This document shows positions 917 to 64,000 of a stretch of 64,000 bases of DNA, in pieces (position 1 is the first letter of the stretch; every line of letters begins with the position of its first letter). Source of the DNA: Eledone cirrhosa (Eukaryota). The stretch is from contig OZ024743.1 of NCBI GenBank assembly GCA_964016885.1, positions 363,940,001 through 364,004,000 of the forward strand, written 5' to 3'. Below the pieces are notes generated by a model. It was not told the DNA's origin. It did not search any database and saw only the letters and a program-made list of their open reading frames with translations. The translations under genes were made by a program, and so were the position numbers.

Positions 917-974
<58 letters not shown>

Positions 975-1016
975 TTCAAAATATTAATAAATGTAGACAT
1001 TTACTTAATCAAAATA

Positions 1017-1082
1017 TATTTTATTATATATATTTCGGAGGTACTGTGCTGTTTTTTCAGTACGTCCTCATCAGATAAAATA
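1017..1082 (-). ncRNA. Minimal type I hammerhead ribozyme
   Basis: Minus strand: TATTTTAT-CTGATGA-GGACGTACTG..CAGTACCTCC-GAAA-TATATA-TA|ATAAAATA. Stem I is 8 bp, stem II is paired and stem III is palindromic. Confidence 0.8.
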
Positions 1083-1540
1083 CATACATTGTTGTATAAC
1101 ATACCTCAACTGTGCTGATGGTCCAATTCCAGTCTTGCTTAAATTTTGGTTATATATATATATGTGTTCGGAAAAGATTGTTTAGTAAAAACAGGAGTAA
1201 GCAGGAGAAAGCTCTCAACAATCGTTGTTTTAGTTACGATGGAGAATTTTATAAAAATAACAAAATAAGATGCTGAGGTTACATATATCGTTTAATCATA
1301 ATAATTTTTTCTACGGTTCTCCATGCAATCGAGACGTCCTTCATGCATTTGCTGTTGATTATGAGTACGGTTTCCTCAAATGAAGATCGATATATTTGAC
1401 ATGTCGCTGGCAGGAAAACACACATCCTAATGCCTGTGCGCCCAGCATACATGAGAACGGTTTCCTCAGATGAAGATCGATATATTTGATATGTCGCTGG
1501 CAGGAAAACACACTTTCTTTGCTTGAACTTTAATCTGTTA

Positions 1541-6984: not shown

Positions 6985-8738
<1,754 letters not shown>

Positions 8739-8750
8739 TTATATATATTT

Positions 8751-8820
8751 TTATTAAAATAACAGATTAAAGTTTAAGCAAAGAATTCTTTGCTTAAATT
8801 TTAATCTGTTATTTTAATAA
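8751..8820. repeat. 70 bp spacerless palindrome
   Basis: TTATTAAAATAACAGATTAAAGTTTAAGCAAAGAA|TTCTTTGCTTAAATTTTAATCTGTTATTTTAATAA, one mismatch. Confidence 0.9.
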
Positions 8821-9068
8821 ATATTTGCTCTAGGGTTCTTATATATTTGATATATATTTATCCTTATCGAACCCTCTTGGGATTTTAGTCTTCCCATTTA
8901 TTATTATTACTATAAATATATATATATATATATATATGTTTATGGGGGAAACGGGTTGAGCTCTGCTGTCGGCGTCTTAAACATTTTCCTATCACCCACT
9001 CTACTACCCTAAGTATTGAGTACTCTAGTGCGTTATGGTCCATCTGGTTCCTTACCACACTCCCTTCG

Positions 9069-16862: not shown

Positions 16863-18470
16863 ATTTCTTTATTAACTACAAAAGGTCCACATCAAAAAAA
16901 ACCTTATCACAGTACAGGACGAAAACATAGAGTGTGTGTTTGTGTGGGGGTTTTGTGTGTAAACAAATTTTAACAATGTTAAAAAAAAGAAGATAATAAT
17001 AAAATTAAAACAAAGAAGTTTCCTCAATAGGGAGACGTTCGAGGGTCATTCGTGGAAAAAACTCCATAAAACCACGGATGCTCTGATCCTTAGGACGAGT
17101 GCACTGTCTTAGTTGTACTCCTCCAATCTACAGGCTTACACTCAGAGCGGGCCCATTCACTCGGGCCATCCTCGCTTCTCTCGCCCACCTTGCAAATTGT
17201 TTTGAAGGTAGCACTTCTCTCTCAACCCTAATTTTCCTCCTCAAGTGGAATCTGAAGAACTTAATCAGGGCTACTCCAAAAAGGAAAGTGCTCGTCTTCA
17301 AACCTTTAAAGCGTGTCCAACATACAATCTCTTTCGTCATGGCCACACGACATATAAAAATGGCCTACCCTTCTTGAGTAAAAGAAAGCGGCGAGACAAT
17401 CTTCACAATGGACTCGGTTGATAACCGAATTTGTCCTACACATGACAGTAGGTGTTCAACATAAACCCACAAGTCAGCAATGCTCGGACACTGGACGATT
17501 GCGTGCAGGAAGGTTTCGTCGTCCTGCGCGCATCTTGGACAGGCACGATTGACGGCACTTCCATGTCTGTAGAGTTTAACTCGAACTGGCAAAGCTCCTC
17601 GGTAGCGCTGCCATGCCAGAGATTTCTGAAAATTATCCGTGGACCCTGGACCGAAAGCCCTTTCGAAAAGAGTGGCTAGTTGATTTTCGTTGATGTCTAG
17701 AGTTTCTCCAAGAACGTCGTTGCTTTTATCTACCACTAACTCTCTATAGAAAGCCAAGGTGGTGTTTCCACCGATCATATTGCCTGATTGTTGAAGGGCT
17801 GTAAACGCCTAGAGACATTCCAGTTTCCAAGCGCTCTCTCTCGGGCTCTGCTTGATCCAGGACTGTAGCTCTGTTAAGGATACGAGCTGGGGGAACATGC
17901 CCCTGGTGAACGGCGACCACGCCTGTTCACCGTTGAAGAAGAGACAGAGATGTCGTGCCCCGCGATGAATGTGTTCGCCACCTCTGGCCTACCTTTCAGG
18001 GACAGCTTTCTTTCGGCCCATTTCTGGATGAGATTCGCCAATCTGTTCGTCACCTCATCCCAATCTCTGTCCATCTGGAGGTCAAGACCAAACCAAACCC
18101 TGAGTAATTTAATCGGCCGATCTGTCTAGCGCCCGATGACACTGTTAGACGGCATGGACTTGCCCCTCCATGTGCCGAGGTGTAGGCCCACGGATTTTTC
18201 CTGGTTGATTTTCTCTCCTGTCAGCGCTTCGTATTCTTTCAGAGCAGTGCCGATCACCTTAATGTGTTTGGTGTTCAACACTACGACTGTGACGTCGTCG
18301 GCATAAGCCGACACAGATCTTCCATGTCCTAGTTCACGCGGGGTGCCTCTCAAAATGTCTAATTTGTGTAATAGTGGCTCGAGGGTCAGTATATACAACA
18401 AGGATGAGAGGGGACATCTCTGGCGGACCGAAAGCATGATGTTAAATGGTTCCGAGAGGTGACCGTTCAA
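16863..18470 (-). mobile_element. Tx1/L1-clade LINE, 3' ~1.6 kb
   Basis: RT SAYADDVTV, INQEKS, LSLKGR and zf-RVT CPRCAQDDETFLHAIVQC; has an internal deletion. Confidence 0.9.
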
Positions 18471-18479
18471 TCTGATCTA

Positions 18480-19440
18480 CCTGTTTATTACGGTGATAGA
18501 TAAATGGCTATGTTTGTAAGATAAGTTATGGTAGATTTGCGATGTGGTGTCCTTTAATGGTGACAAGAGAGATGTTTAAAATGCTCAGTGGCGCTAAATT
18601 TTCAGACGCTATAAGTCTGGGGAAGTATACTGTTTATACAAACAGTTAAGTTATTGGATCGAATCCTGCTTATTTTGGTTTGTAGTTTATGAATGTGTTG
18701 GCGACTTTGTGCCTACAGTAGATTGTCCGTTCAATTTTGTTATTGTATTGAAAAATATGGAGTAATTCCATATTACATAATTTGCATTGGGACATCCCGT
18801 GTGTATAAGCCCTGGCAATTGATAATTTAGACCAGCTTATTTTGTATTCTTGTTTATTATTCGCAAGCTGCAAGATTTTATTGACCAGAGTTGTCGTGCT
18901 TCTGAGCCTGCGGTTCATAATCGAATGTCTATGCACATACCAGCGTTTCGTGAATTCCTTTACTATAGAACCTATGTAATACCATTCTTGGTCGTCTGAT
19001 TTTATAGTACATAGATACATTATATTGGATTCAAGACATTTGTTTTGTAGTGGGCATTTATATGGTAGATGGCAGTTACACTTAGTGGACTTCCTTGTGT
19101 TGGCTCTCCGTTATAGTCAGATGTGTAGCTTGAATTAGGCTGTGATGTTGGTCTGTTTATGTTGTGTTGCTGCGTTGTATATTGTCGACCGACTGGTTGC
19201 GATGTAGTTATAGAGTTGCGTTTGATGTTAGATGTTGTGTTGGTATGTGTGGACTAATACTTCTAGAGATTATTTTTGAGTTGAGTTTTCTTATGTATGA
19301 TTCTATATTTGCTGCAGTAGAATATGATAGTTTAATAGTTTTTCTATTGAAGATGTGGTATTTATGTGGTTTTGGTTATGCTTATCTATTAGATTAAATA
19401 AGATAAAGGGTAGATTGGTACTTATTGCATAATTGAATAC
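18480..19440 (-). mobile_element. Penelope-like element 3' fragment (Cys-linker GIY-YIG type)
   Basis: HKYHIFNRKTIKLSYS thumb, YKCPLQNKCLESNIMY..YYIGS..FTKRWYVH..CKLC..CRHK. Confidence 0.8.
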
Positions 19441-20538: not shown

Positions 20539-21244
20539 TGTGTGTCTGTTTGATAGGGCTCAACAGTTAAGAGGTATAAATATCAGCTACAAGCACAAGG
20601 TGAGGAAAAGCTCAATGCCAAAATATATAATTGTTTCTACTTTTGGCACAAGACCAGCAATTATCTCAGTGAATTACTGATACTTTATTTTATCGACCCT
20701 GTCAGGATGAAAGGGAAATTAAACCTCGGCGGGATTTGAACTTAGAACGTAAAAATATATATAATACTAGACCACCCGTGACCCGTTGGTTCAGAGTTCA
20801 CTTCAAAATATTCTTTAAAAATCATGTTCACTTATTTAAAAAATAATTTCTAAATAATTAAAATTTACACAGACATGTATATAATGTGAAATAAAACTGG
20901 AAGGCCCATATATATACGTGTGTATGTATATATATATATATATGTATGTGTGTATATACATATGTGGGTGTCTGTGATCTATATACACTGGTCATAGACA
21001 CATATACACACATATATATATATACACACACACTCACATATATATATGTATACACAACAACATTACCAGCTCTCTCTCTCTCTCTTCCATTCTCCTTCTC
21101 TATCTCCTCTCCCTCTCTCTATGTCTCTGTTTCAATCTACTCTCTCACAACCACTATCTCTTTCTCTCTATGTTTCTCTCTCTCTGTTTATGAAGGTACC
21201 CGGAAAAACTCCATATCTCGGGAGCCAGTGCTTCGATTTATTTC

Positions 21245-21282
21245 TCTGAGGAACTGGAATCATATGATTCCAGTTCCTCAGA
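21245..21282. repeat. Perfect 38 bp palindrome
   Basis: TCTGAGGAACTGGAATCAT|ATGATTCCAGTTCCTCAGA. Confidence 0.9.
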
Positions 21283-21378
21283 AAAATAACAACCCAACCA
21301 GGAGCTGGACATATCGAAGTATTGACGGAGTAAAACACTTCAACAACATGTGTACCTGTCTCTATCACACCAATTCGG

Positions 21379-21433
21379 ACTGCCTGAAGAGGTCACAGCC
21401 AATGATGCCTGTCACCGAAATATATATAGCAGT
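21379..21433 (+). ncRNA. Minimal type I hammerhead ribozyme
   Basis: ACTGC-CTGAAGA-GGTCACAG..CTGTCACC-GAAA-TATATA-TA|GCAGT. Confidence 0.85.
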
Positions 21434-21436
21434 ACA

Positions 21437-21665
21437 TCTATATATATAAAAGCAAGTCGGTCTGTGTGTGTGTCTGTGTGTCTGTCTGTGTACAAATACT
21501 AGGCTCCTTTTAACTTTTGAATTACTAGGCCGATTTCAACCAAATTTGGCACACATGTTGCTTATATGCCAGAGCAGATTTTGAAGAAATCGATATTGGA
21601 GCGGAAAAATCGATTTTGTGTGTATCTGTCTGTGTACAAATACTAGGCTCCTTTTAACTTTTGAA
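21437..21665 (+). mobile_element. Helitron-like non-autonomous 5' fragment
   Basis: A|TCTATATATATAAAAG start, (TCTG/TG)n, GGCCGATTTCAACCAAATTTGG motif and an internal ~45 bp direct repeat. Confidence 0.5.
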
Positions 21666-22344: not shown

Positions 22345-23135
22345 ATGGTGGCTGCCAACTCGTTTTCGAGTACAGCCACTACTTTATATCCATGTAGGAG
22401 AACCCCTACCGATGCGCTGAACGAGTGTGACTTTTTAGTCCAGCCAGCGACTTGAAACCTCTGGTACAAACACTACACTTATGACAATTATTGACACATA
22501 GTGCTGGGCCCATGGTACCATGCGACGATAAGTGCAGAGGAGTCTCCAGATATAAAGCAATGCCTGTGCCGTGAAGCTTTTATAGTGAGCAAAGGCACTG
22601 CACAAAGCCAGTCCCACTCTCTTAACCAAGATTATATTTACCAAAAAGAAGAACAAGTCAACATCATTGGATACCATCAGGGTTGCAGGTGTTATATCGG
22701 AGTTTTCCTTCTCCTAGAATTCTGCCTTGACAAACGCTAAGAGGTCATCTCTCCCGGTGATTTTGGATGGTCATTGACTCTTAAGAGCAACTTTGCCCTT
22801 TGACAGGTTTTGTTTTTAGTCCTGCAGAATGTCCAAAGTCACCCTCCTCACCAAGAAACCTTGGTGGGGTTGCCAGTTTAGTCGCCAACGACCCGACCAT
22901 GAGACGGGTTGTACTGGGATACATGTTACCAGTAGCACCAACTGGTGACCTGACATAACACATACATACATATATACATACATGGTGGCTGCCAACTCGT
23001 TTTCGAGTACGGCCACTACTTTATATCCATGTAGGAGAACCTCTACCGATGCGCTGAACGAGTGTGACTTTTTAGTCCAGCCAGCGACTTGAAAACTCTG
23101 GTACAAACACTACATCTGTGACAATTATTGACACA
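22345..23135 (-). mobile_element. RTE-derived non-autonomous element: full copy 22345-22954 and 3' fragment 22982-23135
   Basis: Multi-copy in the window. RTE-5'UTR-like TAGGAGAAGGAAAACTC motif, RTE-type C2H2 remnant [14 protein letters not shown] and a (TATG)n tail. Confidence 0.75.
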
Positions 23136-23175
23136 TACATACATACATACATACATACATACATACATACATACA

Positions 23176-23206
<31 letters not shown>

Positions 23207-24309
23207 CAACTTGACCAGTCTCACATATTGGCGTGGGAGACTATTCATTGAATTTAAGATGAATAGTGTCCCCAACGGTAATGCCACAACAAAAAGATAT
23301 GATGGGAGGGTTTTTAGATAAATAGATACACTTACATGAGTGTGTGTCTGTGAAACATGTATATACGCACCAAGTCCGAACACAAAAGAACCAAATTCCA
23401 ACCGTCACTGCCTCCGTCCCTCCCGCTCTCCCCATCTCACACTATTATGAGCAAATGGGGCCCACGTGCTGGCCGCCCCGTGGCCCCGGCGGACTGGTCG
23501 CTCGACAGACAGAATAGAGAAGGCGTTTCCCCGGAGGATGGTGAGGGAGACACACTGGATGAGCCATCCCACTTCACGAGGCTCACACCTGCGGGTAGCC
23601 AACCCTGTGCCGATGGTGTTGGCCCTAGGAGCATGGAGGTGGCCCTAGGACCAAGGACATCAGAAGTATCCATTGTCACGAGCTCGACCGCAAACCTGTC
23701 GGAGATCTACCAGTCAAATTGAATAACTGGATAATCTTCTAATTATACTAACTGAAAACACCTTTTATTCAATTCGTAGAGATATCCGACAAAAAGTTCA
23801 AACATTTATTCCACAAGGATTAGCTACAAGTAGTATGGCTGAACACAACAACAATATCAACAACATTGGAGGAGAACCGAAGAAAAACAACAACGATAAA
23901 GGTAAACAAAATGTCTGGCTACAGAAGGAACCGAATTTATAAATCGCATTTTTCTTGGAGTTACGAACTTAATAATTATTTATTTAATTGTTATGAAATG
24001 GCAAAAAAAGATCCCTCTGTCGACTATACGAACAGAATGAAGCTATACTGGGACAAAATACATCCAGGTCTAAATCACTTCACAGCCAAACAATTATGCT
24101 AACAAGCAACGTTTGTTAGCATAATAACATGAACATTATTCATTGTAATTCCCCCAGATTGAACATGCAATCAGCCACAGGTGCTGCATGCCGCCATGTT
24201 ACTAAACTTTCTAGCAGCCAGACTGAACATCAGCAAACAGCAGCAATACACAAATAGTCCCTTGAAACAACTATGCCGGTAAAATATTTGACACCAATTT
24301 TGTTACATC

Positions 24310-26470
24310 TGTAGCGAAAAAGCTGTTTTCCCACGGTGTTTTTCTCCCTCACGGACACGAACACCAAAAGAGTGACCGAAAACGGCTATTACGACTCCTT
24401 TCAGTCTCTTCAAGTTTCTTACAATGCCATTCGGTTTACGCTATGCTGCATCAACCTTTTAGTGTTTCATCGGCACTGTAGTACGTGGTTTACCCTTCGT
24501 CTACACGTATATTGATGATATTCTGGTAGCCAGCACATCCCACGAGGAACAAGAACGACACCTGCGACTGCTTTTCGAGCGTTTTTCTCAGTTTGGTGTC
24601 ATCATCAATCCCAACAAATGCCTTTTCGGGACACCACACCGACGAACAAGAAATCCGCCCTCGCCACAAGGTTAAGTCGATTTTAGATTTCCCCACTCCT
24701 ACACGTCCTTGAGGAAAGTACATCAGTTCCCTGGTTCATTCCTCGCTGTGCAAACGGAAGAATAAGCTTATCACTTTCAATGAGGCACAAGCAGCTACCT
24801 TTCTTAAAATCAAGAGGGTCTTAGCAGAAGCTACAGTGTTGGTTCATCCTGAACTCGACGCACCGCTCTGTCTCTTCGTCGACGCGTCAGATGTCGGGGT
24901 TTGTGGCGTCCTGCAACAATGTGTAGACGTTGCATGGCAGCCGATTTCTTTCTTCTCTGGGTGCCTCAAACCGGCTGAAACGAAGTACAGCATGTTCGGC
25001 CAGAAGCTTTTTTGGCAGACATTTCCGGCACATGTTAGAAGGTTCTGTGTTCTCTATTTACACGAACCACAAACCTCTCACGTATATTCCAAGCCTGACC
25101 GCCACTCACCTAGAGAAGTACGCCAACTGGATTATATATACCAATGTACTACGAATTTTCACCATATCAAAGGTTCAGACAACTCTGCAGCCGACGCTCT
25201 TTCTCTGCACAACCTATCACATCCTCGTGTCAACTCCACCCTAAAGTTAATAACAGCCTGGTTTGTCTGAGTTGGTATGAACAAGGCTGTCAGGGAATGG
25301 GCCAGTGTCAGAGGGCAACAATTCACCACCATGTCAGAACTCTTCTGCAAACCTTCGCAACACCAGATGCATGTTTCCAACATGCGCACATCGACATCGT
25401 CGGACCACTCCCTCTTTCTCGGGGTTGCACTCACCTTTTGACCTCTGTAGACAGAACCTTTCCCCAGCCTAATACGTCTATTACCAAGGCGCTAATACAG
25501 CATTGTATTTCGCGTTATGGTACACCTTCTATCGTCACAATGGACAGAAGAGGCCAGTTCGAATCGAACCTCTTTAACGATACGCCTCCTAGGTTAGTGG
25601 AACGTTTCCATCGGCAATTAAAATCTGCTCTCAGAGGTTATGTCAACAACTGGTTGAAAATCTTATCTCTTATCCTTCTTGGAATTCGCTCCACCGTAAA
25701 AGGAGGACTTGGTTTTACACCAGCTGAGCTGGTTTATAGCACGACATTAGTAATACCCAGGCAAATGATTGCACCTGATTCTCAACACCCAGCGGATACA
25801 ACAAACTACATCCATCGTCTGTGGACATATATGTCAAACCGGCCATCCGTTTCTCCTTGTCCTCAAGTATCACTGCTCACGTTCCATCTGACATACAGCA
25901 ATGGATACACGTTTTTTGTCAGAAGGGACACTGTCAGAGCTCCTTTACAGCCACCATACTGTAGGCCCTACCAAGTACTCAAAAGGACACCCAAACATTT
26001 CATTTTAGACATTAATGGTTAGATGGGTGCTGTCAGTGTCGACCGATTATAAAAATCTCACGTGGATTTGGAAACACCCTCACCATCAGACCAAGCTAAC
26101 CCAACATCAGCGCTCCCGTTCACCGGTACTCCTAACTCTATGCCAACAACAAGCACCAGATCCGGTCGACGGATGTACTGGCCATCTCGCTATGTCCAAT
26201 ATTTCGAGTAACATTCTTCATCACATCTATAATTTGTCCATCTTTTTTATTTTATTTTATTTTATTATATTTTTTATTCTTTTTTTTTCTCTCTTTCTAT
26301 AAGGGAAGTATGTAGCAGTTTCCTATGGCGCCATTGGTTCTCTCTTTCTTTACCTTTTCGATTATCTATCGCTACTCTGTTTTGATCTGGGCGGGGAACT
26401 AATGTAGCGAAAGAAATGTTTTCCCACGGTGTTGTTTTCCCCTTACGGACACGACCACCAAATGAGTGAC
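24310..26470 (+). mobile_element. Gypsy/Ty3 LTR retrotransposon remnant
   Basis: RT MPFGL..YIDDILV, RNase H LFVDASD and integrase HIDIVGPLP..VERFHRQLK. ~68 bp direct repeats start TGTAGCGAAA at 24310 and 26403, the latter after a purine-rich tract. Confidence 0.85.
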
Positions 26471-28747: not shown

Positions 28748-29950
28748 ATGGTGGCTGCCAACTCGTTTTCGAGTACGGCCACTACTTTATAGCCATGTAG
28801 GAGAACCCCTACCGATGCGCTGAACGAGTGTGACTTTTTAGTCCAGCCAGCGACTTGAAAACTCTGGTACAACCACTACACTTGTGACAATTATTGACAC
28901 ATAGTGCTGGACCCATGGTACCATGTGACGACAAGTGCAGAGAGATGTCCAGATATAAAGCAATGCCTGTGCCGTGAATCTTTTATAGTGAGCAAAGGCA
29001 CTGCACAAAGCCAGTCCCACTCTCTTAACCAAGATGATATTTACCAAAAAGAAGAACAAGTCAACATCATTGGATACTATCAGGGTTGCAGGTGTTATAT
29101 CAGAGTTTTCCTTCTCCTAGAATTCTTCCTTGACAAAGGCTAAGGGGTCATCTCATACATACATACATACATGGTGGCTGCCAACTCGTTTTCGAGTACG
29201 GCCACTACTTTATATCCATATAGGAGACCCCTACCGATGCGCTGAACGAGTGTGACCTTTTAGTCCAGCCAGCGACTTGAAAACTCTGGTACAAACACTA
29301 CACTTGTGACAAATATTGACACATAGTGCTGGGCCCATGGTACCCTGTGACGACAAGTGCAGAGAGATCTCCAGATATAAAGCAATGCCTGTGCCGTGAA
29401 GCTTTTATAGTGAGCAAAGGCACTGCACAAAGCCAGTCCCACTCTCTTAACCAAGATGATATTTACCAAAAAGAAGAACAAGTCAACATCATTGGATACC
29501 ATCAGAGTTACAGGTGTTATATCAGAGTTTTCCTTCTCCTAGAATTCTGCCTTGACAAAGGCTAAAGGGTCATCTCTCCCGGTGATTTTGGATGGCCATT
29601 GACTCTTAAGAGCTCCTTTGCCCTTTGACAGGTCTTGTTTTTAGTCCTGCAGGATGTCCAAAGTCACCCTCCTCACCAAGAAACCTTGGTGGGGTTGCCA
29701 GTTTAGTCGCCAACGACCCGACCATGGGTCAGGTTGTACTGGGATACATGTTACCAGTAGCACCAACTGGTGACCCGACATATACATATACATATATATA
29801 TACATACATATATATATATATACATACATATATACATATCATCATCACCGTTTTATATATACACATATATATATATATACACATATATATACATACACAT
29901 ATATATATATATATATATACATACATACAGAGATATATATATATATATAT

Positions 29951-30016
<66 letters not shown>

Positions 30017-30973
30017 GTATGTATGTATATATATATATATACATATATATGCATATACATATATATATATACATATATATGTATATACATATATATATAC
30101 ATACATATATATACATATACATATACATACATATATATATACATATATATGTATATACATATATATATATATACATATATATGCATATACATATATATAC
30201 ATATATATACATACACACACATATACATGCACATACATATATATATATACATACATATATACATACACATGTATATACATATATACATATACATACATAT
30301 ACACATACATATGTATATATATATATATATATATATATGGTGGCTGCCAACTCGTTTTCGAGTACGGCCACTATTTTACATCCATGTAGGATAACCCCTA
30401 CCGAAGCGCTGAACGAGTGTGACTTTTTAGTCCAGCCAGCGACTTGAAACCTCTGGTACAAACACTACACCTGTGACAATTATTGACACATAGTGCTGGG
30501 CCCATGGTAGGACAATTATTGACACATAGTGCTGGGCCCATGTGAGGACAAGTGCAGAGAGATCTCCAGATATAAAGCAATGCCTGTGCCGTGAAGCTTT
30601 TATAGTGAGCAAAGGCACTGCACAAAGCCAGTCCCACTCTCTTAACCAAGATGATATTTACCAAAAAGAAGAACAAGTCAACATCATTGGATACCATCAG
30701 GGTTGCAGGTGTTATATCAGAGTTTTCCTTCTCCTAGAATTCTGCCTTGACAAAGGCTAAGGGGTCATCTCTCCCGGTGATTTTGGATGGTCATTGACTC
30801 TTAAGAGCTCCTTTGCCCTTTGACAGGTTTTGTTTTTAGTCCTGCAGGATGTCCAAAGTCACCCTCCTCACCAAGAAACCTTGGTGGGTTGCCAGTTTAG
30901 TCGCCAACGACCCGACCATGAGACAGGTTGTACTGGGATACATGTTACCAGTAGCACCAACTGGTGACCTGAC
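28748..30973 (-). mobile_element. Three stacked copies of the RTE-derived element (28748-29154, 29171-29779, 30337-30973)
   Basis: Highly similar to 22345-22954 and separated only by (CATA)/(TA) microsatellite. Confidence 0.85.
29780..30336. repeat. Compound (TA)/(CATA) microsatellite
   Basis: Direct reading. A similar tract lies at 39160-39650. Confidence 0.95.
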
Positions 30974-33780: not shown

Positions 33781-34247
33781 TATTTATATTTATGGTGGGA
33801 TTTGAATTTGTATTAGCATCAATTCACATGTATTCGCGCGTGTACTTGGATTTGTAATAGTATTTACGTTTGTATTGGGGTCTATGATAATGCATGGATA
33901 TGCATTTGTATCAGTGTCATTGTCTTTACATGTGTTTGTGATAGCCTGATTGTTTCAGATCATGTTTATATCTTTTATTTTGTTGGAGTTAGTATTTGTT
34001 CTTATTTTGGAGGTTATGTTTGAATGTTTTTATTAGTATTGTTATTTATACTTGTTTCTAAATTGGTGCCAGCAATTGTATTTGTATTGGTATTTGTTTT
34101 TGTAATGGTGTTTGTGTTATACTTGTGTTCTTCTTCTTCTTCTTCTTCTTCTTCTTCTTCTTCTTCTTCTTCTTCTTCTTCTTCTTCTTCTTCTTCTTCT
34201 TCTTTTGGAATTAGGAGACCTGATATAAACACACACACATACACACA

Positions 34248-34560
34248 CAAGATGGCGTAGGACAGAACAAAGGAGAGGCACAAAAACAAAGAAAAGAATC
34301 CCCAGTCACTGAAGACGTCACAGAATGTGTGACGAAAGAACTTTGACAATATATAAACAATCATCTGGTTGTGGAACCAACCAACCTACCGGAAATTTAT
34401 AAATTCCTAAATTTATAAATTTATTATAATAAATTGAAGTGAAAGCAACTGGTGCGTGTGTTTCTTATTGGCAACATGACCCTCCCAAAGTATAACAATA
34501 TCGGTTTCAACACACGTTTTCAGATAAAGAATCTTGCTAAACAAATTCAGAAACGAAATA
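34248..34560 (+). mobile_element. ~315 bp HHR-bearing module (copy 2; HHR 34305-34347)
   Basis: GTCA-CTGAAGA-C-GTCAC-AGAATGT-GTGAC-GAAA-GAAC-TT|TGAC; homologous to 1625-1938. Confidence 0.75.
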
Positions 34561-34587
34561 TATATACATATATATATATATATATAA

Positions 34588-35239: not shown

Positions 35240-35624
35240 TGTCAAGGCAGAATTCTAGGAGAAGGAAAACTCTGATATAACACTTGCAACCCTGATGGTA
35301 TCCAATGATGTTGACTTGTTCTTCTTTTTGGTAAATATCATCTTGGTTAAGAGAGTGGGACTGGCTTTGTGCAGTGCCTTTGCTCACTATAAAAGCTTCA
35401 CGGCACAGGCATTGCTTTATATCTGGAGATCTCTCTGCACTTGTCGTCACATGGTACCATGGGCCCAGCACTATGTGTCAATAACTGTCACAAGTGTAGT
35501 GTTTGTACCAGAGTTTTCAAGTCGCTGGCTGGACTAAAAAGTCACACTCGTTCAGCGCATCGGTAGGGGTTCTCCTACATGGCTATAAAGTAGTGGCCAT
35601 ACTCGACGAGTTGGCAGCCACCAT
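35240..35624 (+). mobile_element. RTE-derived element, 5'-truncated, opposite orientation
   Basis: Reverse complement of 22345-22730. A diverged relative lies at ~41480-41680. Confidence 0.85.
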
Positions 35625-42250: not shown

Positions 42251-42474
42251 TTATGAGGTTGGTTTTTCATTTTAATTTATCCTCTCTTAGCTTATATTCT
42301 CTTCACGCAGGAGGTTTAAAATCCTATAAACGAAAACACACTCTCCTGTGTTTTTCCTCTCTATAATGTATATATATATATATATAAAGCAATGAGCTAT
42401 TTAATTTTTTGGTTATTCAACAAATTTAGTTTATAACAGATTAGGAGCACTCTACAAGTTTCTTCTTGAATATA

Positions 42475-42810
42475 ATATCAATAATATTAATAAATAGAAA
42501 CTATCTTTATAAAACCATATTTATTTTATTATATATATTTCAAGGGTACCAAAACTTTTGGTACGCCCTCATCAGATAAAATACAAAAGTTGTTTTACGG
42601 ATAGTGACATATCCAAAACTAGAACTTCGCGTTTTGAGTAATTCAAACAGAACTCAAAACGCGAAGTTTTGAATATGTCACTATCTATAAAACAACTTTT
42701 GTATTTTATCTGATGAGAGCGTACCAACAATTTTGGTACCCTTGAAATATATATAATAAAATAAATATGGTTTTATAAAGATAGTTTCCATTTATTAATA
42801 TTATTGATAT
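42475..42810. repeat. 336 bp palindrome with a hammerhead on each strand
   Basis: Arms 42475-42639 and 42652-42810 with a 12 nt loop. HHRs at 42522-42583 (minus) and 42702-42763 (plus). Confidence 0.9.
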
Positions 42811-43199
42811 ATATATATACACATATACATACATACATTTATGCACACACTCACCCACACACATACATACTTATATATGCATGTGTTTGTTGTGAACATT
42901 GTAGATAACGGATCTTTTATTCGTTTGAGGCACCAAATTGCTCCATACGCATTCGGAGAGTGTCTTGGATGGCGTTAACGTCCTCGTTTATGATGTAAAG
43001 CCCTGTAATTAATAAGAAAATAATCCCCCTATTTGGGGAATTTTCTTTTGTTTCTATTTTCGTTACATCCTTTGTTTTTATTTTATACTCATTTTTACAC
43101 GCAGAAACCCACATTATACAATTATATATTGTCCTTAAGGAATTTTTATGTAAACCCTTTGTGATCAATAAAGAAAACATTATTTTTTTTTTTTGTGCA

Positions 43200-44790
43200 T
43201 CATTATTGCTTTACCGAGCACAGCTCTGTGTGCCTTGAGTATGAGCAGTGTAGTTTTTGCCGGTGTTGTTTCTATTGTATTGATAGTACTTTTCGTAATA
43301 AGTGTGCAGTGCCTAGAGGTGCTATTTTTTGTATGCTGTATGTATTTGTAAGTCCTGGGGTTTTGGTTATGTATTTGTCTGTGTTTTTTATCATTCCCAG
43401 ACACCTATTATTATATGACTAGCAGAAAAACCGCTCTTTTCCTTCTAGCATGTGTAGTGTGCATATTATATTATACGCCAATATATATGCATGTAGATAC
43501 ATCTACAATCAGGCACGATCTTTTTTCCTTGTCAAAAACCACCAGGTCAGGCCTATTGTGTTCTAATTTCTTGTCTGTCTGTATCCTGAAATCCCATAGC
43601 ACCTTCACTCGATCGTTTTCTATCACCGACTCTGGTTTATGCTCATACCACTTCTCAGAATGTGGTAAATTATTTAGTTTTCATGAATGCCAGTGAATCA
43701 CCTTTCCTATTATATCGTGTCTCCAGCCTTTATAGTGAGCCTGGGCTAGGTGTTTACACTCGGATACGATGTGAGCCACAGTTTCCTCTCTCTTTCCACA
43801 GATCCTACAGAGTGGGCTAGTCTCCTTGTCAATATGGTGTTTCACCCACTTCGTTTGGGGTCTTGCTCCTGTCCAGCCAGTATCATTTCTTCTGTAGCTT
43901 TTTTAAGGTCTCCTCTTTTTAACCAGCTCCATGTCTGTTGATCTCTGAATTCCGTTTTTTTTAAACGGTGTTATGAAGTGTTTTTTCATGAAGGTTGCTC
44001 TTCCTCTTTGTTGTTACTTCCTTCTTGAACATCCCCAGTACATTTTCTCCTTCAGTACATTTTTGAGCATCGGCTCCCTACTCTCAGACAAATATTTGTG
44101 TAGACCGCTCTTCTCCATCTGAACACAGTCCTCTACGCTGATAAGACCTCTTCCACCTTCAGATCTCTTTAAGTAGAGTCTATCAACATCACTCCTCTTG
44201 TGGAACATGCTGTAGGTAGTCATTAGCCTCCTAGTCTATCTATCCATTTCTTTTTGTTCAGTAATATTCCATTTTGGAATTCCCGCTCTGTACCTAATAA
44301 TAGACACAGCTCGAGAATTTATTGCACTTATGAGATTGTTACTATTTAGATGTGATTTTAGTATGTTCCTTACTCTCCTTATGTATTCAGATCTTATCAA
44401 TTCCTTCATTCTGTTGTTCTTGATGCCATTTGCTTCCAGAACACCCAAATACCTGTATCCCTCTTTAGTGTCCATTTCCTTTATCATCTCACCTGTTGGT
44501 ACCTGGATTTTGTTGCTTCTGTTCAATTGACCCCTCTTCATCACTAGGACTCCACACTTATTAATACCAAATTCCATACATATATCATTGCTGAAAATAC
44601 GGACAGTGTCAACAAGTACATCCAACTCCTTCTCACTCTTCCCTAAGAGTTTAAGATCGTCCATGAAGAGGAGGTGGTTGATGGTAAGATCTCCTCTTCC
44701 CAGCTTGGATGCTGCTCTCACTTTTCGCAATATGAGGGACAAGGGTATGAGGGTAAAGACAAACAACAAAGGGGACAAACTATCGCTGGA
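43200..44790 (-). mobile_element. R4/Dong-type LINE fragments (RT, CCHC, RLE)
   Basis: DSLSPLLF, INHLLFMDDLKL, YRYLGVLE, RLYLKRSEGGRGL and HNRPDLVV. A second 3' tip lies at 43200-43415. Confidence 0.85.
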
Positions 44791-44794
44791 GATA

Positions 44795-47700
44795 CTTTTC
44801 CAGATCAAACCTGAAGAAATATAGAAAATCCTGAAGCAGATCCGCCTCCAAAGTGATGACTGAAATCAGCAGGCCGCACTGTTCATTTGCAGCGAAAAAA
44901 CACACTTGCGAGCCTTCTTCCCTCAGCTGTTGAAAAATGCAAGGGGTCAAAAGTTTCTGCTGCTCCCGACGCCGGGGCCTCATCGCGAAATAACAACACC
45001 AACAACAAAATCTGCAGCAGAACCAACAACAACTGCAAAGACAACCAAGACCACCCAGGGACCACTCCAAAGAAGCTCTCCCGGCCCCTCCCTCTCGAAC
45101 ACACACACACACATTGAAACACACACACCCATACACGCACTCCCACTTACATCTGACACAAACACAGAAACCTCTTCATCACTAAGCGAAGATTAGGAGG
45201 AACACCAAAAGCTAAAAAAGACAAAAAAGAAAACACAAGAAGAAATCTCACACACCAACACAAACAGCAAACAAAAAAGACACATTCACACCAAACACTG
45301 ACACACATACTACAACACCCTCCCCCGCAAAAACGCAAACGTCAACACAAACACCATCTCCACCAACAACACTACCACTAACACAAACAACTAAAAGAAA
45401 ACACACAGAGCAACAACTTACAACCACAACACCTAACTTCGTGTTAGTGAGGAAATCGAACACAAAACTACTGAACCTCATAACACGAAGTAAGGAAATA
45501 GAGAAAGAGGGGGAGGTATTTAACACCTGCACCTTCAAGGTGCCACAAACACTTTTGCTGGTGCGAATGGCACTAACCAATTATAAGACAATTAGGGAGG
45601 GCTTCCCCAACAACGTGGGAACACCCAGTGTAAAAGCCTCAAGTAGGCTTTTAAAGGGATTCCTCAAAGAAACCCCACCAACTATGGAGTTCGAACCACA
45701 CGACCTTCACAAGAGCACGGGAGGTAAGTAAACATTTCCTCTCTCTTTTAGCCTGCCAATATGGCCATATTAAGAGTAGGATGTTTAAATGTTCGAGGCC
45801 TGGGATCATCCTGGAAGCAGGGTCACCTGCTCAATGACCTCAGGTCTCTAGAAATGGATGTAATTGCCGTCAGCGAGACCAAGATTTCCGACACGCGTGC
45901 ACTAACCCCTATTTTCGACGACTATCAGATCTTCGCATCTGTTAGTCGGCCGGGAATGGGAGGTGGGTGGCAATGCTGTTTAGGAAAAGCCTGGATCTCG
46001 AGGTAAGGTCGATCTTCCGGGACCCGGACGGTAAGTTGGTGGTCCTGGATGTGAACAATAGCGAAGGTGGTGCCTTTAGACTGGTGGCCGTCTACGCCTG
46101 GGGCAGGACGGCCGGATTTCTTTAGACGCCTGGAAGCCTTTCTGGGTACGTCTCGCCATTTACTGTTAGCGGGGGACTGGAACGGCATCTTAGACGCACG
46201 CTGGGATTGTGTGGGAGTAACTGATAGGAGCGGGGGGTGGAAAAGCCTCAAGTACATGATCAGCAAGTTCCAACTGTCTGACAGGTACCGACTAGATTTC
46301 CCTAATGCGCCAGTGTGGACCTGGACAAATCGTTTAGGGACATCTAGATCGTACTTAGATAGGTTTCTAATTAGATTAGTGGATAAGGATAGTATAGGGT
46401 GTCCACAATTACATACGGTCGCCTATTTAGATCACAAGTTTGTGATCTGTATGGTCGACCTAGATAAGACGCGTAGATTAGGACCTGGTTACTGGAAGCT
46501 GAACATGTCGTTTCTGGAACGTAAGGCTTACAGGGACGGGGTCAACAATTTAGTTAAGAAAAAGTTGACAGGGGGCTCTCAAAAGAGAGATTAGAGTAAT
46601 GTCGATAGAGTTTAGCAAAGAAGTAGCATTAGAGAAAAATAGAAAGGAGGGGGGATGGATAAGTTTGACGAGGCTGTTTGTAGTGGCATTGCAACTAACG
46701 AGCTAGCGGCGAGAATGGCATTAGATCATTTCTTCAATGCGAAACACGAAGGTTGCATTGTCAAAGCTAAGGCGCCTGCTCTGAGAAACGAGAGGACCAA
46801 AGCTGTTCGATGGGCCCGCGTGGCAGAGGTGCAGCATGGTAATAAAACCACGATTCGGTCTTTGGCGGACCGAGACGGACACGAACTGAGCGATTCCAAG
46901 CGGATGTGTGAGGCCTTTCGCCAACACTTTGCTCGGTTGTTCGGGGGAAGTGGCGGGTAAGAGACGGTGGCGGACTTCAGTCCCTACCTCAATGGCTTGC
47001 CGCAACTCTCGACGGCCGACGCTGAGCGCTGCGAAAGGCCGATTACTTCAGCCGAGATTCAGGATACCCTTGTCGGCTGCATGAGGCGCAAGTCACCCGG
47101 TTTGGATGGTCTGGCCTACGAGCTTTACGTAAATATGCCAGACTTGTTCTCCGATCTCCTCAAAGCGCTCTACTACAACTGGTAGCAGAATAGGAGTACT
47201 ACCAGTTTAATGTGCCGGGGCGTAGTGATGCTGATAAGGAAAGACGAGAATAAGAGGGACACATTAAACAATTTCAGGCCCCTAACTCTGCTCAACACAG
47301 AGTTTAAGATTTTGGCCAAGGTGTTAGCGAAGAGGTTGGCGCTTGTCGTCGGGGATTTGGTTGGGGAGGCGCAAACTTGCGCAATCCCAACCACGCCCAT
47401 ACACGACAACCTCCACCTGATGCGATACATCATAGAGAGGGTAGCGTGTAAACCTGGCTTCGGTGGGGCTCTGATCAATTTAGATCAATCGAAAGCTTTC
47501 GATAGGGTCGACCATCGGTACCTGGAGGCTGTCTTCAAGGCGGCTGGCTTCGGCTCCGTCTTCAGAAGCTGGGTCGCTGCAATGCACAGCGGCATCTGCT
47601 CAGTGGTCAAAGTTAATGGCCACCTCTCGGAACCGTTTCAGATTTCTCGATTGGTCCGTCAAGGTGTCCTCTCTCCTCCCTTCTGTACGTATTGACTCTC

Positions 47701-49325
47701 GAGCCTTTACTGCGGAAGCCGGAGCTGTTGCAGGACATCCCGCTCGAACCAGGACGTGTCGGCTTATGGGGAAGACATCACCGTGATGGTGTCGGACACC
47801 TCAGAAATCGAGGTGGTCGGCAACTTATTGGAGGAATATGAAAGGTTGACAGGAGCAAAACTTAACCCGGAAAAGTCGGTGGGCTTGCAACTCAGCACCT
47901 GGAGAGGAAAGTCCATGCCGTCCAACAGCGTCGTTGGGCGCTGGACGGACGGACCGGTAAAGTTGGTCGGGGTTTGGTCCGGGCCAGACCTCCAGGTGGA
48001 TAAGAATTGGGAGGAGGTGACTGGCAGGGTAGCCAGTCTCACCCAGAAATGGGCTGCGAGGAAGTTATCACTGAAAGGTCGGGCGGAGGTGGCGAACGCG
48101 TATATGACGTCCGTCATCTACTACCGCCTGGCCGTCGTCCCTTACCACCGTTCGCGCCTCGCCAAGTTGGAACAGCTCCTCTTCAAATTCTTGTGGAGGG
48201 GTCAGGTTCCGTTGGTGAGGCGGTCCATCTGCTGCCAGCACCCTCTACGTGGAGGGCTGGGCATGCCGTGGCTAATGATGCGCAGACATGTGCTGAGGCT
48301 GCGGCATCTCCAGATATTCTGCCTAAACAGTGAACAGATGTGGTCACCGTTTGTCTGCGGGCCTTTCCGCAGCTCGTCTTTTTGACTTAGCTTCAGTCCT
48401 GGGTCAAGAAGAGACCGATACTGGGTGACTGGCAGCTGGAATGTTGCCAGGCACTCACTGCCCTCTACCAAGCGGGAAATGCGGTCAGTGAAAGTTCCAC
48501 TCTCGAGTGCTATAGAGGATTAGTGGTGGGCAAGTGCAACAACGACTCGGAAAGGGCGGCGACGAAGTCGAGCTAATCAGTTTGTTCCGGAGGACTTCCG
48601 AGCCGGGGACGATGGATAATTTCCAAAAATCCCTCGCTTGACAGGCATGGAAGTGCTGTCAGGCGGACCTACCCGAGATGCGCGCAGAGCGACGAAACCG
48701 TTCTGCACGCACTCGTCCAGTGTCCGTGCATTACTGACTTGTGGGATTATTTTGAATAGCTGTTGTGTAGCACGGATCCGGCTATCGGCCGAGTCCATAG
48801 TGAAGATCGACCCGCCGCCTTCTTTTAGCCAGGAAGGGCAGGCAATTTTCCTCTGTCTCGTGGCAGTAGCGAAAGAGGTTGTATAGTGGACCAGGTTGAA
48901 AGGACTGAAGACAGATACTTTTCTCTTCGGCCAATCCCTCATCAACTTTTTCAAGTTTCACCTGGAAAGGAAGGTGAGGGTGGAGAGAGAAGTGATGCCC
49001 CCCCTCCCCCCAGTAGATTTGTGGAAAGGTAGGCGAATGTGGCGAGAATGGCCTGTGTGAGTGGGCCAACTCTGATCATGCGCCTGTAGGTGGGTGAATT
49101 TGAGGAGGAGCGGGGTGCCCTGCCCGGAAGCTCTCGAAGCGTCGGGTCGTTCAATATTGGTGGGGTACCTGAGTGAACCCTGGGTGACCTAGAGGAATTT
49201 TTCTTGTATTTTTCTTGTTATTTTGTTATTGTTATTTATATTGTTTACACCTTGTATATGTAAACCCCCACTCTTCCTGTCTTTTGTATTGTCCCCTATA
49301 TGTCGGCACTTGTGACCAATAAATC
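44795..49325 (+). mobile_element. Tx1/L1-clade LINE, near full length, frameshifted
   Basis: ORF1 remnant, APE (LNVRGL, AGDWN, SYLDR, DH), RT (NFRPLTLLN, LDQSKAFDRVDH), 3' UTR and AATAAA. Confidence 0.92.
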
Positions 49326-49337
49326 AAACTATTATCA

Positions 49338-49503
49338 TTGGCAGTATCGGTAGAGGGTCGCTCCTTGCCATTCTGAGTTCAAATCGCGCCGAGGTTAACT
49401 TTGCCTTTCATCCTTACGGGGTCGATAACATAAAGTACCAGTAATGCACTGGGTAATTGCTTGCCTTGTGCCAAAAGTAGAAACAATTATTATTATTATT
49501 ATT
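49338..49503 (+). mobile_element. tRNA-derived SINE (short variant)
   Basis: B box, GCCTTTCATCCTTACGGGGTCGATAA core and (TTA)n tail. Confidence 0.85.
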
Positions 49504-49639
49504 GGTCTGTTCGGGCGTTTTTTGCTCTCTCCCAGTTAGTCGCTTTATTTGCCTGTTAAAATTATTTGTTGTTAAATATTTCTTGTTGTGTAAGGGATAT
49601 AAGCCCGTAGACTTTGCCCTGTGAATGGGGAAAGTATAA

Positions 49640-52600
49640 TATTTGGGCATTTTAACCCTATATTTCTGCTGTCGTGTGACACCGGCGTAAAATTTGAGAG
49701 GAGGGTTAGTGAAATTCATACAACAGACACCACCACAAACAACGTGAACAAAGACAACAACACAGAGAACACTAATTTTGAAAACATTACCACACTAACT
49801 ACAATAATAACAGCGTCAACCAAAATACAGACAACAGAAAAAAATTACAACAAATGCAACAACGATATTAACACCACTAACAAGAAAATAAACAACGACA
49901 ACACCACCAGCAACAATACAAATTGCACCGAAAACAATAACAACGGTGGCACCAAAAACACAACCAACTACAACAGTGATAACAGCAACAACACCAACAA
50001 GGCAGCAACAGCAACAATACCAGTAGCGGCAGCAATAATGGTGCGGCTGAAAAAGGGTCCACTTCTTTCGCTGGTGTGGACCGAAATATAGAAACAGTGC
50101 TAGTCACGGAGGAGGAGATGGCAGTCGCAAGAACCATGGTGTCGAGAAACGACAATAGAGTTTCCCTGAAACCTCCACCCTATTTCTTCAAAGACCAGCA
50201 ACTGCGCACGGTGACTTACCGCACCGTAAGCAAAATGTCACATCGGGTGGAGAGAGCCACGGAGGCTCAAATCCAAAAGGCCTTGGGGTGCGTCTGGGCG
50301 CGCAAAACTCACATCACCCGAGGCAAAAAGTACGCCACAGTATGCGTACTATTCGCCGCGAAGTCTCACTCTTTGGAAACCCTAAAGAATGAGGAGATAG
50401 TCTTGGTGTCCTCCTACTGCGGGCAGAAAATTGTGAGAGTCAAAGTGACCCAGGTCCCGCCCGACGTGCCCATACCTTGGCTGGCCAGACATCATAGACC
50501 TCGAAGAAGGGCCCCAACTCCCTATAAGCGTGGAAGGAAGGCGCCCAAAGTGCTATCTCTGTGGGCAGAAGGATCATCTCAGGGCCTTCTGCCCGCAGAA
50601 GGCAGCCAAGAAGAGTACCCCCCTCCTGCCGACACCTGATCCGCTGCTACCAAGAGCAGGGCAGGCAACAGAGGCAGAAGACCCTTCCATGGTGAGTAGG
50701 AGGGCACGTCCGTGGCACCCATACCAAGGCCACGGACAACTAAAGCAGCGGCAGCAGTGGCGGCAACACCAACAGTCGCAGTAGCTACACTGGCGGTAAA
50801 ATCGCCTGAGCGGGTTCCACTACCACCAACAGCAGTAGAGTTCATGCCCCTCCCGGACGCCGCGGGGTCCGACATGGAGTGTGAGGCGGGAGGGAAGTAG
50901 CAAACAGTCTGCCACAAAAAAAAAAAAAAAAAAAAAACCTTAGCTTCACCCTCCAAAAGCGAAGGCAGACAAAGAGGGGCAAAGGCTGCAAGGAGACTTG
51001 CAGCAACATCACCACCATCACCATCACCACAAAAAGCATCACCACCAACAACAACCACACCACCACCAGCATCACCAAAAACACCAACATCACAAACACA
51101 ACAAAACACACACACCCAACAGCAACAAGAAAACAGCAACAAAATCACCCTCCCCCCAAAAATACACAGCCATAAACATGGCAAATGAAGAACTCTTACA
51201 ACATATAAAGCAGCACACAGACATCACAGAAAAAAACTACTACACCACACCAACACCAAGAACTCTCCCGGCAAACATAAACATCATTGAAATCAAAATA
51301 GAAAATTACAAACTCTTAAAACAAAAATTCCCCAACGCAGTTGGAGACTTCAGAGGGTCGGTTACCAAGAAGATATACACTGACATCTTCTTGGAAACAC
51401 CCATGACCAGCCAAAGGGACGGTTCTACTGTCCCTTCACCACACGATCAAGGTAAGTGATCCTTTCTCACTTGCCCCGTTTCTCATCCAACATGGCCGTA
51501 CTTAGAATAGGCAGTATAAATGTACGTGGCCTGGGTCATCTTGGAAGCAGGGTCACCTGCTCAACGACCTCAGGTCACTAAACATAGATGCAGTGGCCAT
51601 CAGCGAGACCAGAATCTCCGAAGCATGAGCCTTCGCACCGATCTTCGGCGGTTACGTTGTATACGCATCTTCCAGCCGTGCTTTTTCGGAGAGGCTTGGA
51701 TCTCGCCATACGGGCCATCTTCCTGGACCCAGAAGGTAAGTCAGTGGTGCTGGACGTGACCAGCAGCGAAAGCAATGCTTTCAGGCTAGTAGCCGTCTAC
51801 GCCCCAACAGGGGCAGGACGGCCAGATTTCTTCAGACGTCTAGAGACCTTTCTTGGAACGTCCCGCTCCTTAGTGTTAGTGGGCGACTGGAACGGTATCT
51901 TAGATGCAGGCTGGGATTATGTGGGACTAGTAGACAGGGAAGGAGGGTGTAAAAGCCTCAACAACCTGCTCAGACGTTTTGAACTGTCTGACAGGTATAG
52001 ACTGGATTATCCGAATGTGCCAATGTGGACATGTGCAAACCGCATCGGGTCATCCAGATCGTATTTAGATAGGGTATTCTGTAGGGAAACATAAGGCTAG
52101 TGTAGGTTGTCCACAATTTAAAGTAGTCGACTAGACGGACCACAAATTTGTGATCTGTGAAGTTGGCTTAGATAGACTCCATAGGCAAGGAAGCTACTGG
52201 AAGCTGAACGCGTCGTTCCCGGCGCGTAAAGCTTACAGAGACTGGATTAGCGAATTAGTTAAGCGTGCATTGACGGATGCGATCGTCAACAACAGGTGGT
52301 GGTTTACTCTGAAAAGGGCTATTAAAGTAGAATCGATAAGGTTTAGCAAAAGAGTAGTGATAGAGGAAAATAGAGTAGAGGGAGAGTTAGTTAGAAAGCT
52401 AGAAGAGGCATTTAGGACAGGCATCACAACCGACTTGCTTGCGGCGAGATTGGCGCTCGACCAATTCTTCAACGCAAAGCATGAAGGCTGCGTTGTCAGA
52501 GCTAGAACGCGCGCTCTATGTACTAGGGGTAAATCTCCAGGTATGGATTCTCTGCTCTACGAGCTTTATGCGTATATGCCAGACTTGTTGGCGACCTCTT

Positions 52601-62912: not shown

Positions 62913-64000
62913 TCAATCTGATGACGTTGTACTGACATCACTACAAGAAAGTTCTCCACTAAAATCCCCGCGGTCCACACCGGTGGTCCAGCTCTCGAGA
63001 AGGTCACTGAAATCAGGTGTTTTGGAAGAGTTCAACATATAACTGGAACGTGTAGAATATTTTGATTTTGTTGCCACTGAACCCGAACAGGGTTGTTTCC
63101 AGAAAGAACGAGGTAATTTTCTTTGGTTCATCGGTACAATATTATCATGTTTCTTCATATCCAACCGAAGACGTTTTAATTTCTTTGTCGACGTCTTCGA
63201 TTTTGAATCGAAGAAATTACGTAGTCCAAACTCAAACAATTCATTGAATGGTCCCAGTCCAATTGATTTATTCAAACGACCACTAAACTTATCTTTATTA
63301 TCAAAGCCTTCTGACGAAGACAATTTCTCGTGGGCTTGAGACAATGTCGCTGTTGCTGTGGTAGCACTATGCTTTGAAGAGCTTCGACGCGTGTCGGTGC
63401 TCTCTCCATGTGCAATTCTCAATAAATCTGCGTAATAGAGTTCTCGCCCTGATTTATTCGTTATCCACTTATCTTCATAAATATCACAAGAGTCCTCGTC
63501 ACTATGCTTACGACCGAAAAACTTTTGTATGTCGGCACTGATTAACTGAGCAAAATCTAACAGTTGCTTACTCACATTTGGGGATTCTGGTCTCCGTGGG
63601 TAGTTAAGTACGGGGAAGTAAACTTCCTCGAGGTCGGCCGAATAATGGGAATCGTGATCACTAAAATCATCATCATCACCATCACTTTCATTATTAACAT
63701 TCTCATCATCAATCTCGTTGTTCTTGTTGATGTTGGTGTTGTTAATGATGACGTTTGCATAGTCGCCATGGTGACTGCTTTTCATGACATTGTTGCTGTG
63801 GGCTTCGAATTGTCGAAATCCTTGAAAGTGGTCGCCATTGAATACATCATTGCTTACATGTGAAGCTGAAGCAACAGTAGATGTACCAGCAGTACTAATA
63901 GTGCATCTATTGCTGGAATAAATGTCCGTATCTTCACTGCAACTATCATCAAAACCATCGTCATTATCTTGCCCGTCTAGAGAGGCAGCTTTAGCAAGAG
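62913..64000 (-). CDS. PERCC1: PERCC1-like protein, uninterrupted ORF, 5'-partial (frame stays open to the window edge)
   Basis: Motifs QLLDFAQLISADIQKFFGRK, DSCDIYED, SGRELYYADLLRIA, LGPFNELFEFGL, PMNQRKLPRSFWKQP and PDFSDLLESW occur in the order I recall for PERCC1. There is no stop between ATG 63785 and 64000 (LAKAASLDGQDNDDGF...). Confidence 0.85.
   Translation of the reverse strand, partial: LAKAASLDGQDNDDGFDDSCSEDTDIYSSNRCTISTAGTSTVASASHVSNDVFNGDHFQGFRQFEAHSNNVMKSSHHGDYANVIINNTNINKNNEIDDENVNNESDGDDDDFSDHDSHYSADLEEVYFPVLNYPRRPESPNVSKQLLDFAQLISADIQKFFGRKHSDEDSCDIYEDKWITNKSGRELYYADLLRIAHGESTDTRRSSSKHSATTATATLSQAHEKLSSSEGFDNKDKFSGRLNKSIGLGPFNELFEFGLRNFFDSKSKTSTKKLKRLRLDMKKHDNIVPMNQRKLPRSFWKQPCSGSVATKSKYSTRSSYMLNSSKTPDFSDLLESWTTGVDRGDFSGELSCSDVSTTSSD

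Follow-up and report, generated by a model that had tools for sequence, protein, structure and literature searches.

Helix II covariation among related minimal hammerhead motifs in repeat-rich, probably octopod DNA

The window, meaning the whole 64,000-nt stretch analysed here, is repeat-rich animal DNA that holds three copies (A, B and C) of a type I hammerhead motif, with A and B 41 kb apart and B and C forming the two arms of a palindrome. Their positions and parts are as follows.

1017-1082, minus strand: type I hammerhead motif, copy A
1082-1075/1024-1017, minus strand: helix I of motif A, 8 bp
1074-1068 and 1036-1033, minus strand: core of motif A
1067-1058/1046-1037, minus strand: helix II of motif A, with C·C at pair 4
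1033-1026, minus strand: helix III strand of motif A, palindromic
between 1025 and 1024, minus strand: predicted cut of motif A
972-1150, minus strand: short repeat unit around A, a (TA)n tract on either side, ending ~46 nt past helix I
42522-42583, minus strand: hammerhead motif B, whose variant helix II has G·U at both 10.1 and 10.2
42702-42763, plus strand: hammerhead motif C, the mirror arm of B, with G·U at 10.1 and A-U at 10.2
42470-42816: head-to-head palindrome with B and C as its arms, 89% complementary over 354 columns (~350 nt)

The original prediction had placed hammerheads at 1.0 kb and 42.5 kb and called their stem I, core and stem III identical. The sequence check found both motifs where they were said to be, the helix II arm letters were the same on re-reading, and the alignment agreed with the identity, which is also common to C, a plus-strand copy that had been overlooked. 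A, B and C show no differences in the 8-bp helix I, in the core or in the strand of helix III, which is an (AU)4 of 8 nt and thus self-complementary. The core around the three-way junction (CUGANGA, GAAA and UH, with A at H17) is intact in these copies and in a fourth one, D, described below; the pair G10.1-C11.1 is G-C in A and D and G·U in B and C, and the extra nucleotide between A9 and G10.1 that is common in the minimal hammerheads of Penelope-like elements (PLEs) is absent from all four. The unit around A spans ~180 nt between (TA)n tracts, (TA)n flanks were found at the A, B/C and D loci, and A, B and C each extend ~46-50 nt beyond helix I. The flanks had been described as diverged, which they are (22/42 identical columns just upstream of the motif and 35/51 just downstream), yet they are still homologous, with 74.5% identity over 165 nt (blastn).

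Minimal hammerhead variants are as a rule defined by a descriptor and not by the Rfam hammerhead models, the full type I descriptor used here consisting of the core, a helix II of at least 4 bp, a helix I of at least 4 bp and UH. It returned five motifs in the window (A, B, C, 21384 and 34309), compared to a mean of 0.02 and a maximum of 1 in 200 block shuffles, and among viral matches to the core pattern, which served as a chance control, 0/120 loci folded as hammerheads (120 of ~160 estimated). A relaxed descriptor added one motif (1686) against 0-2 in six shuffles, which is not significant. Support from single-sequence folding was weak (z of -3.2 for A, -2.1 for B and -1.5 for C), and the RNAalifold consensus is a misfold over GAAA. 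The Rfam models gave no match at the gathering score across the whole window, and no hammerhead family was among the 21 matches at E<=10 in 42300-42900; the Rfam matches around B/C are of the hairpin type and were set aside as chance. A further candidate, 62918-62950, failed to fold into a hammerhead (z 0.43), and scans of metagenomes by the family pattern and by the C·C-layout pattern gave 0 matches each. Separately, a ~330-nt repeat is present between microsatellites at 1616-1945 and 34240-34570 (both plus strand, copies 94% identical) and bears a hammerhead-like motif (core at 1686 and 34309) with an extra nucleotide after A9 and a 6-bp helix II; GAAA is broken in its 1.7-kb copy.

Helix II is where the copies differ. 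Read from the core outwards, its pairs are:

A: GC GC AU (CC) GC UA AU CG UA GC
B: GU GU GC (CC) GC UA AU CG CG AU
C: GU AU GC (CC) GC UA AU CG CG AU

Between A and B, 8/18 paired positions differ and all 9 pairs are kept. Three of the five changed pairs are double changes (A-U to G-C, U-A to C-G and G-C to A-U), for which the earlier description of stem II as carrying compensatory double changes holds; it does not hold for the two core-adjacent pairs, which are single changes from G-C to G·U. Between A and C there are four double changes and one single change, with A-U at 10.2 in C. In the three-copy alignment 54/54 cells are paired, while slid controls pair 39-59% of cells, and 10/500 column shuffles reached the three-copy score. 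With changes placed at random, the survival of all pairs with at least three doubles had p 0.0007-0.03 for A to B and p 0.0006-0.05 for A to C, the ranges corresponding to transition shares of 0.5 to 1.0. The weaker end of these ranges stays in play because all observed changes are transitions (8/8 between A and B), and a null of transitions only leaves every pair intact with a probability of ~0.07. Single changes appear as G·U on the hammerhead strand and as A·C on the opposite strand, and the C·C mismatch persists; this pattern suits RNA pairing but not DNA hairpin repair. Taken from A, B and C alone, of which B and C are non-independent, the covariation is suggestive.

A covariance model built from only A, B and C matched a fourth copy at 21373-21439 with an E of 4.6e-5 (a rough value).

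21379-21433, plus strand: hammerhead motif D, helix I of 5 bp followed by (TA)n

The helix I and helix II sequences of D are unlike those of A/B/C, while its 8-nt helix III palindrome is unchanged and its helix II has the same layout of 3 bp followed by C·C. D brings transversions into the covariation. With D included, double changes are present at 12/19 pairs, 0/500 shuffles reach the score, and 3/76 cells are unpaired (96% pair), a result that leans towards structure because the alignment was fitted to the model; four related sequences are too few for a formal covariation test. The C·C at helix II pair 4 is common to A/B/C and D though 7/9 helix II pairs are doubly changed, and a tertiary or protein contact is a possible reason for its being kept. 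A small palindrome lies at 21241-21284, ~120 nt upstream of D.

Sequencing reads were then used to place these copies within a larger family. Four of nine runs were mapped on 972-1340 at 80% likeness, which yielded 1470 RAD-seq reads (X7) and 1224 contigs (X1), with 1 and 4 contigs under two other organism labels; mapping by likeness under-counts changed stems, RAD-seq samples few loci, and the mapping covered neither the AT-rich helix III nor the 3' strand of helix I. Reads and contigs show the A-type repeat to be a dispersed high-copy family with several upstream families: X7 depth is ~1030 at 1063-1075 and ~10 at 1141-1153, 69% of the mapped reads continue into unlike sequence, and 121 reads diverge exactly past 1082, the outer edge of helix I. 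Among the 40 of 71 variants that were listed, four lie within 1036-1082 and ten within 1083-1098, just outside helix I. Those listed include a loop II variant (218/788 reads, 28%), a core variant at the free N7 position only (336/1016 reads), and helix II variants at 10.3 and 10.2 (208/1033 and 210/1034 reads, ~20% each) with C-type letters. The matching read shares suggest that A-U at 10.2, as in C, is the state of the subfamily. Moreover, 143 RAD-seq reads run into the B/C-type 3' arm of helix II with an agreement of 0.92, which makes B/C a subfamily and not a case of private decay, and an opposite-strand joint was found in 60 reads, so that fold-backs recur in the family. As a separate observation, A carries GTATGT at 1097-1102 (minus strand), a motif that resembles a 5' splice site. 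It sits 15-25 nt upstream of helix I and recurs in two or more further read families, and B and C are without the GT at this site.

The anatomy of the A to D loci, with (TA)n flanks, a ~50-nt tail and an inverted copy, fits 5'-truncated Penelope-like ends, and A to D likely belong to a Penelope element, judging from this sequence anatomy. No Penelope ORF was found beside them in the window by tblastn with 151 proteins, all near one clade, or by a profile from up to 90 of these; 5'-truncated stubs would have none. Pfam searches of 300 of the 375 filtered six-frame segments returned nothing adjoining A to D, the other 75 being for the most part antisense or overlapping frames from a LINE region and duplicate segments of one repeat. 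The sequence upstream of A had looked by eye like a degenerate GIY-YIG tail, which neither tblastn nor the profile supported. Across the window, the tblastn and profile matches were confined to a strong one at 7.5-8.2 kb and a weak one at 18.8-19.1 kb, the first of which belongs to an element of another family.

7475-8225, minus strand: broken Penelope-like RT-thumb/GIY-YIG remnant, of a family other than A to D (Pfam GIY-YIG E 0.0015, below cut-off)
7040-7405, minus strand: 3' terminal repeat of this element, with an inverted copy at ~8240-8600 (89% identity)

The remnant has a cysteine linker as in the Neptune/Nematis clades, and its relatives carry RVT_1 and GIY-YIG. By eye, both terminal repeats contain a degenerate hammerhead-like motif (~7070-7103, minus strand, and ~8524-8556, plus strand), whose core is changed in both repeats and which both descriptors missed. 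The stretch 7040-8600 reads as a 5'-truncated Penelope-like element with an inverted upstream terminal repeat, and it shows that this DNA is home to Penelope-like elements of the same inverted layout.

Several other repeats and remnants were noted along the window. A second, weak Penelope-type GIY-YIG remnant lies at 18838-19131 (minus strand, profile E 0.0024), and small perfect or near-perfect palindromes include one at 8760-8830, an end of which is common to a repeat at 1510-1545. A ~370-nt repeat is present in 5-6 copies that are up to 95-98% alike (22400-22740, 23046-23240, 28800-29560, 30420-30720 and 35240-35600), with a C2H2 zinc-finger-like stretch, below the Pfam cut-off, on its minus strand. 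Retrotransposon remnants of the LINE type (endonuclease, RT, zf-RVT) and the LTR type (RT, RNase H) lie at 17400-18500, 24460-26000, 43700-44900 and 46000-54300, and the nearest named relatives of a retroelement protein in the window are from Octopus bimaculoides (55-58% identity), which points to a probable octopod host. At the far end, 62916-63998 (minus strand) is a 361-codon open frame that runs off the window, matches Pfam TEADIR3 (E 1.5e-7) and probably represents the final exon of a gene of the host.

Folding was used to predict how such motifs could cut. Helix III is predicted not to form in a single copy (pair probability <=0.003; <=0.007 for the closing pair), B and C misfold over GAAA as monomers, and the active monomer fold lies above the minimum by 3.2 (A), 10.0 (B), 5.6 (C) and 4.8 kcal/mol (D). 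The A-A cofold minimum, on the other hand, is the active double hammerhead at -34.0 kcal/mol, 6.2 kcal/mol below two monomers. Active dimers lie above the cofold minimum by 1.0 (A with C), 4.0 (C-C), 8.8 (B with C), 17.6 (B-B) and 4.2 kcal/mol (D-D), and a dimer of A with D cannot form helix I. B and C would need a chaperone or be less active, given that their active dimers are 4-18 kcal/mol above the minimum. In the proposed dimer, the helix III strands of two copies would pair with each other and their helix I strands would pair crosswise, so that two active cores form. Helices I and III would stay fixed because they pair between molecules, and helix II would be free to covary because it pairs within one molecule; helix I is changed at 0/16 positions and helix II at 9/18 (Fisher p 0.001, post hoc).

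I consider it quite probable that A, B and C are related type I hammerhead copies in which the helix II pairs have been kept, likely lying in 5'-truncated Penelope-like ends (pseudo-LTR plus tail) and predicted to cut only as dimers. Selection would have acted in mobile parent lineages and not on these genomic copies, with A on the one hand and B/C on the other probably representing two subfamilies. Every copy includes ~50 nt past the cut site, so the template RNA was presumably uncut at this ribozyme when reverse-transcribed; the ribozyme would then process tandem precursor transcripts and would not make the priming end. A more far-reaching version, which I regard as decidedly improbable, is that a frozen helix I/III interface lets octopod Penelope subfamilies dimerise and cut each other in trans, so that A would partner B/C but not D. 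Helix II would meanwhile drift freely round an invariant C·C, at which the element's protein would dock, and flanking (UA)n in read-through transcripts would titrate (AU)4 and silence genomic copies.

The fold may also be real with helices I and III frozen as a TATA box, a nuclease target or a protein site, or with helix II swapped by recombination, and I hold this to be plausible though not favoured. A TATATATA box in a rotifer pLTR has been proposed as a promoter (PMC3846280), a Penelope-like nuclease favours AT-rich DNA near the ORF-pLTR junction (PMC11167929), and as both pLTRs of an element are copies, helix I could covary in cis, which it does between A/B/C and D. However, D has another helix I yet the same helix III palindrome, and read-family homology stops at the edge of helix I, both as pairing between molecules predicts, and this explanation would alter only the step that accounts for the freezing. 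It is unlikely that A to D belong to a non-autonomous, retrozyme-like element that moves through circular RNA and not to the ends of an autonomous Penelope-like element. The short ~180-nt unit and the lack of a linked ORF would suit such an element, a mollusc has retrozymes with type I hammerheads (PMC7229834), and a descent of retrozymes from pLTRs has been proposed (bioRxiv 10.64898/2026.07.22.740005); but head-to-tail tandem units are absent from the window, where copies are single or head-to-head, the read families differ in upstream sequence right past helix I, and the canonical loop 1-loop 2 layout is absent.

That the helix II pattern stems from DNA-level hairpin correction or from chance transitions, and not from RNA selection, is very improbable. 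The region is prone to fold-backs, and the uniformly transitional A-B changes with their null of ~0.07 speak for it, but correction gives perfect palindromes, whereas here C·C persists, as does G·U, which reads A·C on the opposite strand; the core is intact in four copies with N7 as the variable core site among the variants listed, and D extends the covariation with transversions. I give almost no credence to the idea that the host has co-opted copy A as a regulatory ribozyme: A does keep all pairs, has the best predicted active dimer and is unlike the read majority at several upstream sites, but it is one of many repeat copies in repeat-rich DNA, and subfamily divergence can account for its deviating upstream sites. 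That the parent lineages were under selection for the RNA fold, as originally proposed, is supported by the G·U and A·C sides of the single changes, by the reads of the B/C subfamily and by the double changes in D, and is the best reading. The helix II covariation is real, modestly supported and was read correctly in the first place.

A to D are a real structure, and their covariation is an expected property of a published class. The case changes little, as earlier work has already published the class together with its covariation and palindromic layout, and is best seen as a small, clean example of minimal hammerheads in retroelement ends under RNA-structure selection. It would be weightier if dimers formed across families through the frozen helices I and III, or if a protein contacted the C·C, because what the ribozyme does for Penelope mobility is still an open question in the literature (PMC8557442, PMC11167929). 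Copy A is a good test substrate, since the active dimer is the best fold predicted for it. Among the papers listed in literature searches on cephalopod and octopus hammerheads, in a scope outside which the survey by Lunse et al. falls, none describes the A to D family.

Short-stem-III hammerhead variants, which Lunse, Weinberg and Breaker reportedly found associated with Penelope elements and cleaving as dimers, are one obvious comparison. Compared by their description in a review (PMC6765202), they and A to D are alike in the diminished helix III, in dimer cleavage (here predicted) and in the Penelope association. In 2014, pLTRs were described as carrying minimal hammerheads that have a long helix II, show covariation and occur for the most part as single truncated copies (Cervera and de la Pena 2014, PMC4209133), together with opposite-strand pairs 100-700 bp apart in Penelope-like elements, which the B/C palindrome resembles. 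As portrayed there, the metazoan PLE hammerheads and A to D are alike in being type I, with a CUGANGA/GAAA core, a palindromic helix III, a long helix II, U-rich or AU-rich flanks, mostly single dispersed copies and compensatory changes. On sequence grounds, A to D have the structural features of PLE minimal hammerheads except for the common extra nucleotide, with a mixed picture at G10.1-C11.1. Unlike the hammerheads portrayed in PMC4209133, those found here have a longer helix I (8-11 bp versus 4-5), a 9-bp helix II, C·C in two distant families, a pure (AU)4 helix III strand, no extra nucleotide after A9 and no linked ORF. Precedents for some of their traits can be found in the 56-row alignment of that paper (Fig. 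S3), which has no cephalopod row: by my own count, G10.1·U11.1 is present in 8/56 rows (e.g. Lottia), helix II pair 4 is a mismatch in 2/56 (U·U and C·A), the extra nucleotide after A9 is missing in two published rows, and the row for Saccoglossus (2) lacks the extra nucleotide and combines A17 with a helix III that is a long palindrome. Compensatory changes at G10.1-C11.1 are also documented in cricket satellites (PMC2837043).

Compared with non-LTR retrozymes (Cervera and de la Pena 2020, PMC7229834), the copies in the window are likewise short non-coding repeats of an invertebrate that carry type I hammerheads, but retrozymes are described as repeated in tandem, head to tail, with circular RNAs and with hammerheads that are mostly canonical, while the window copies are without tandem arrangement. 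Penelope insertions, for which an inverted pLTR and a 31-bp tail (Arkhipova et al. 2013, PMC3846280) and a (TA)n target bias of Penelope-like elements (Craig et al. 2021, PMC8557442) have been described, are like the copies here in their head-to-head repeats, palindromic junction, short 3' tail, 5' truncation and (TA)n bias; they differ in that here the ~170-180-nt ends alone remain, with a tail of ~46-50 nt past helix I. Finally, uncut RNA was the main insertion substrate of the element of PMC11167929, whose ribozyme cleavage needs the element's protein, and the suggestion that the template RNA of A to D was uncut at this ribozyme is in line with that element.
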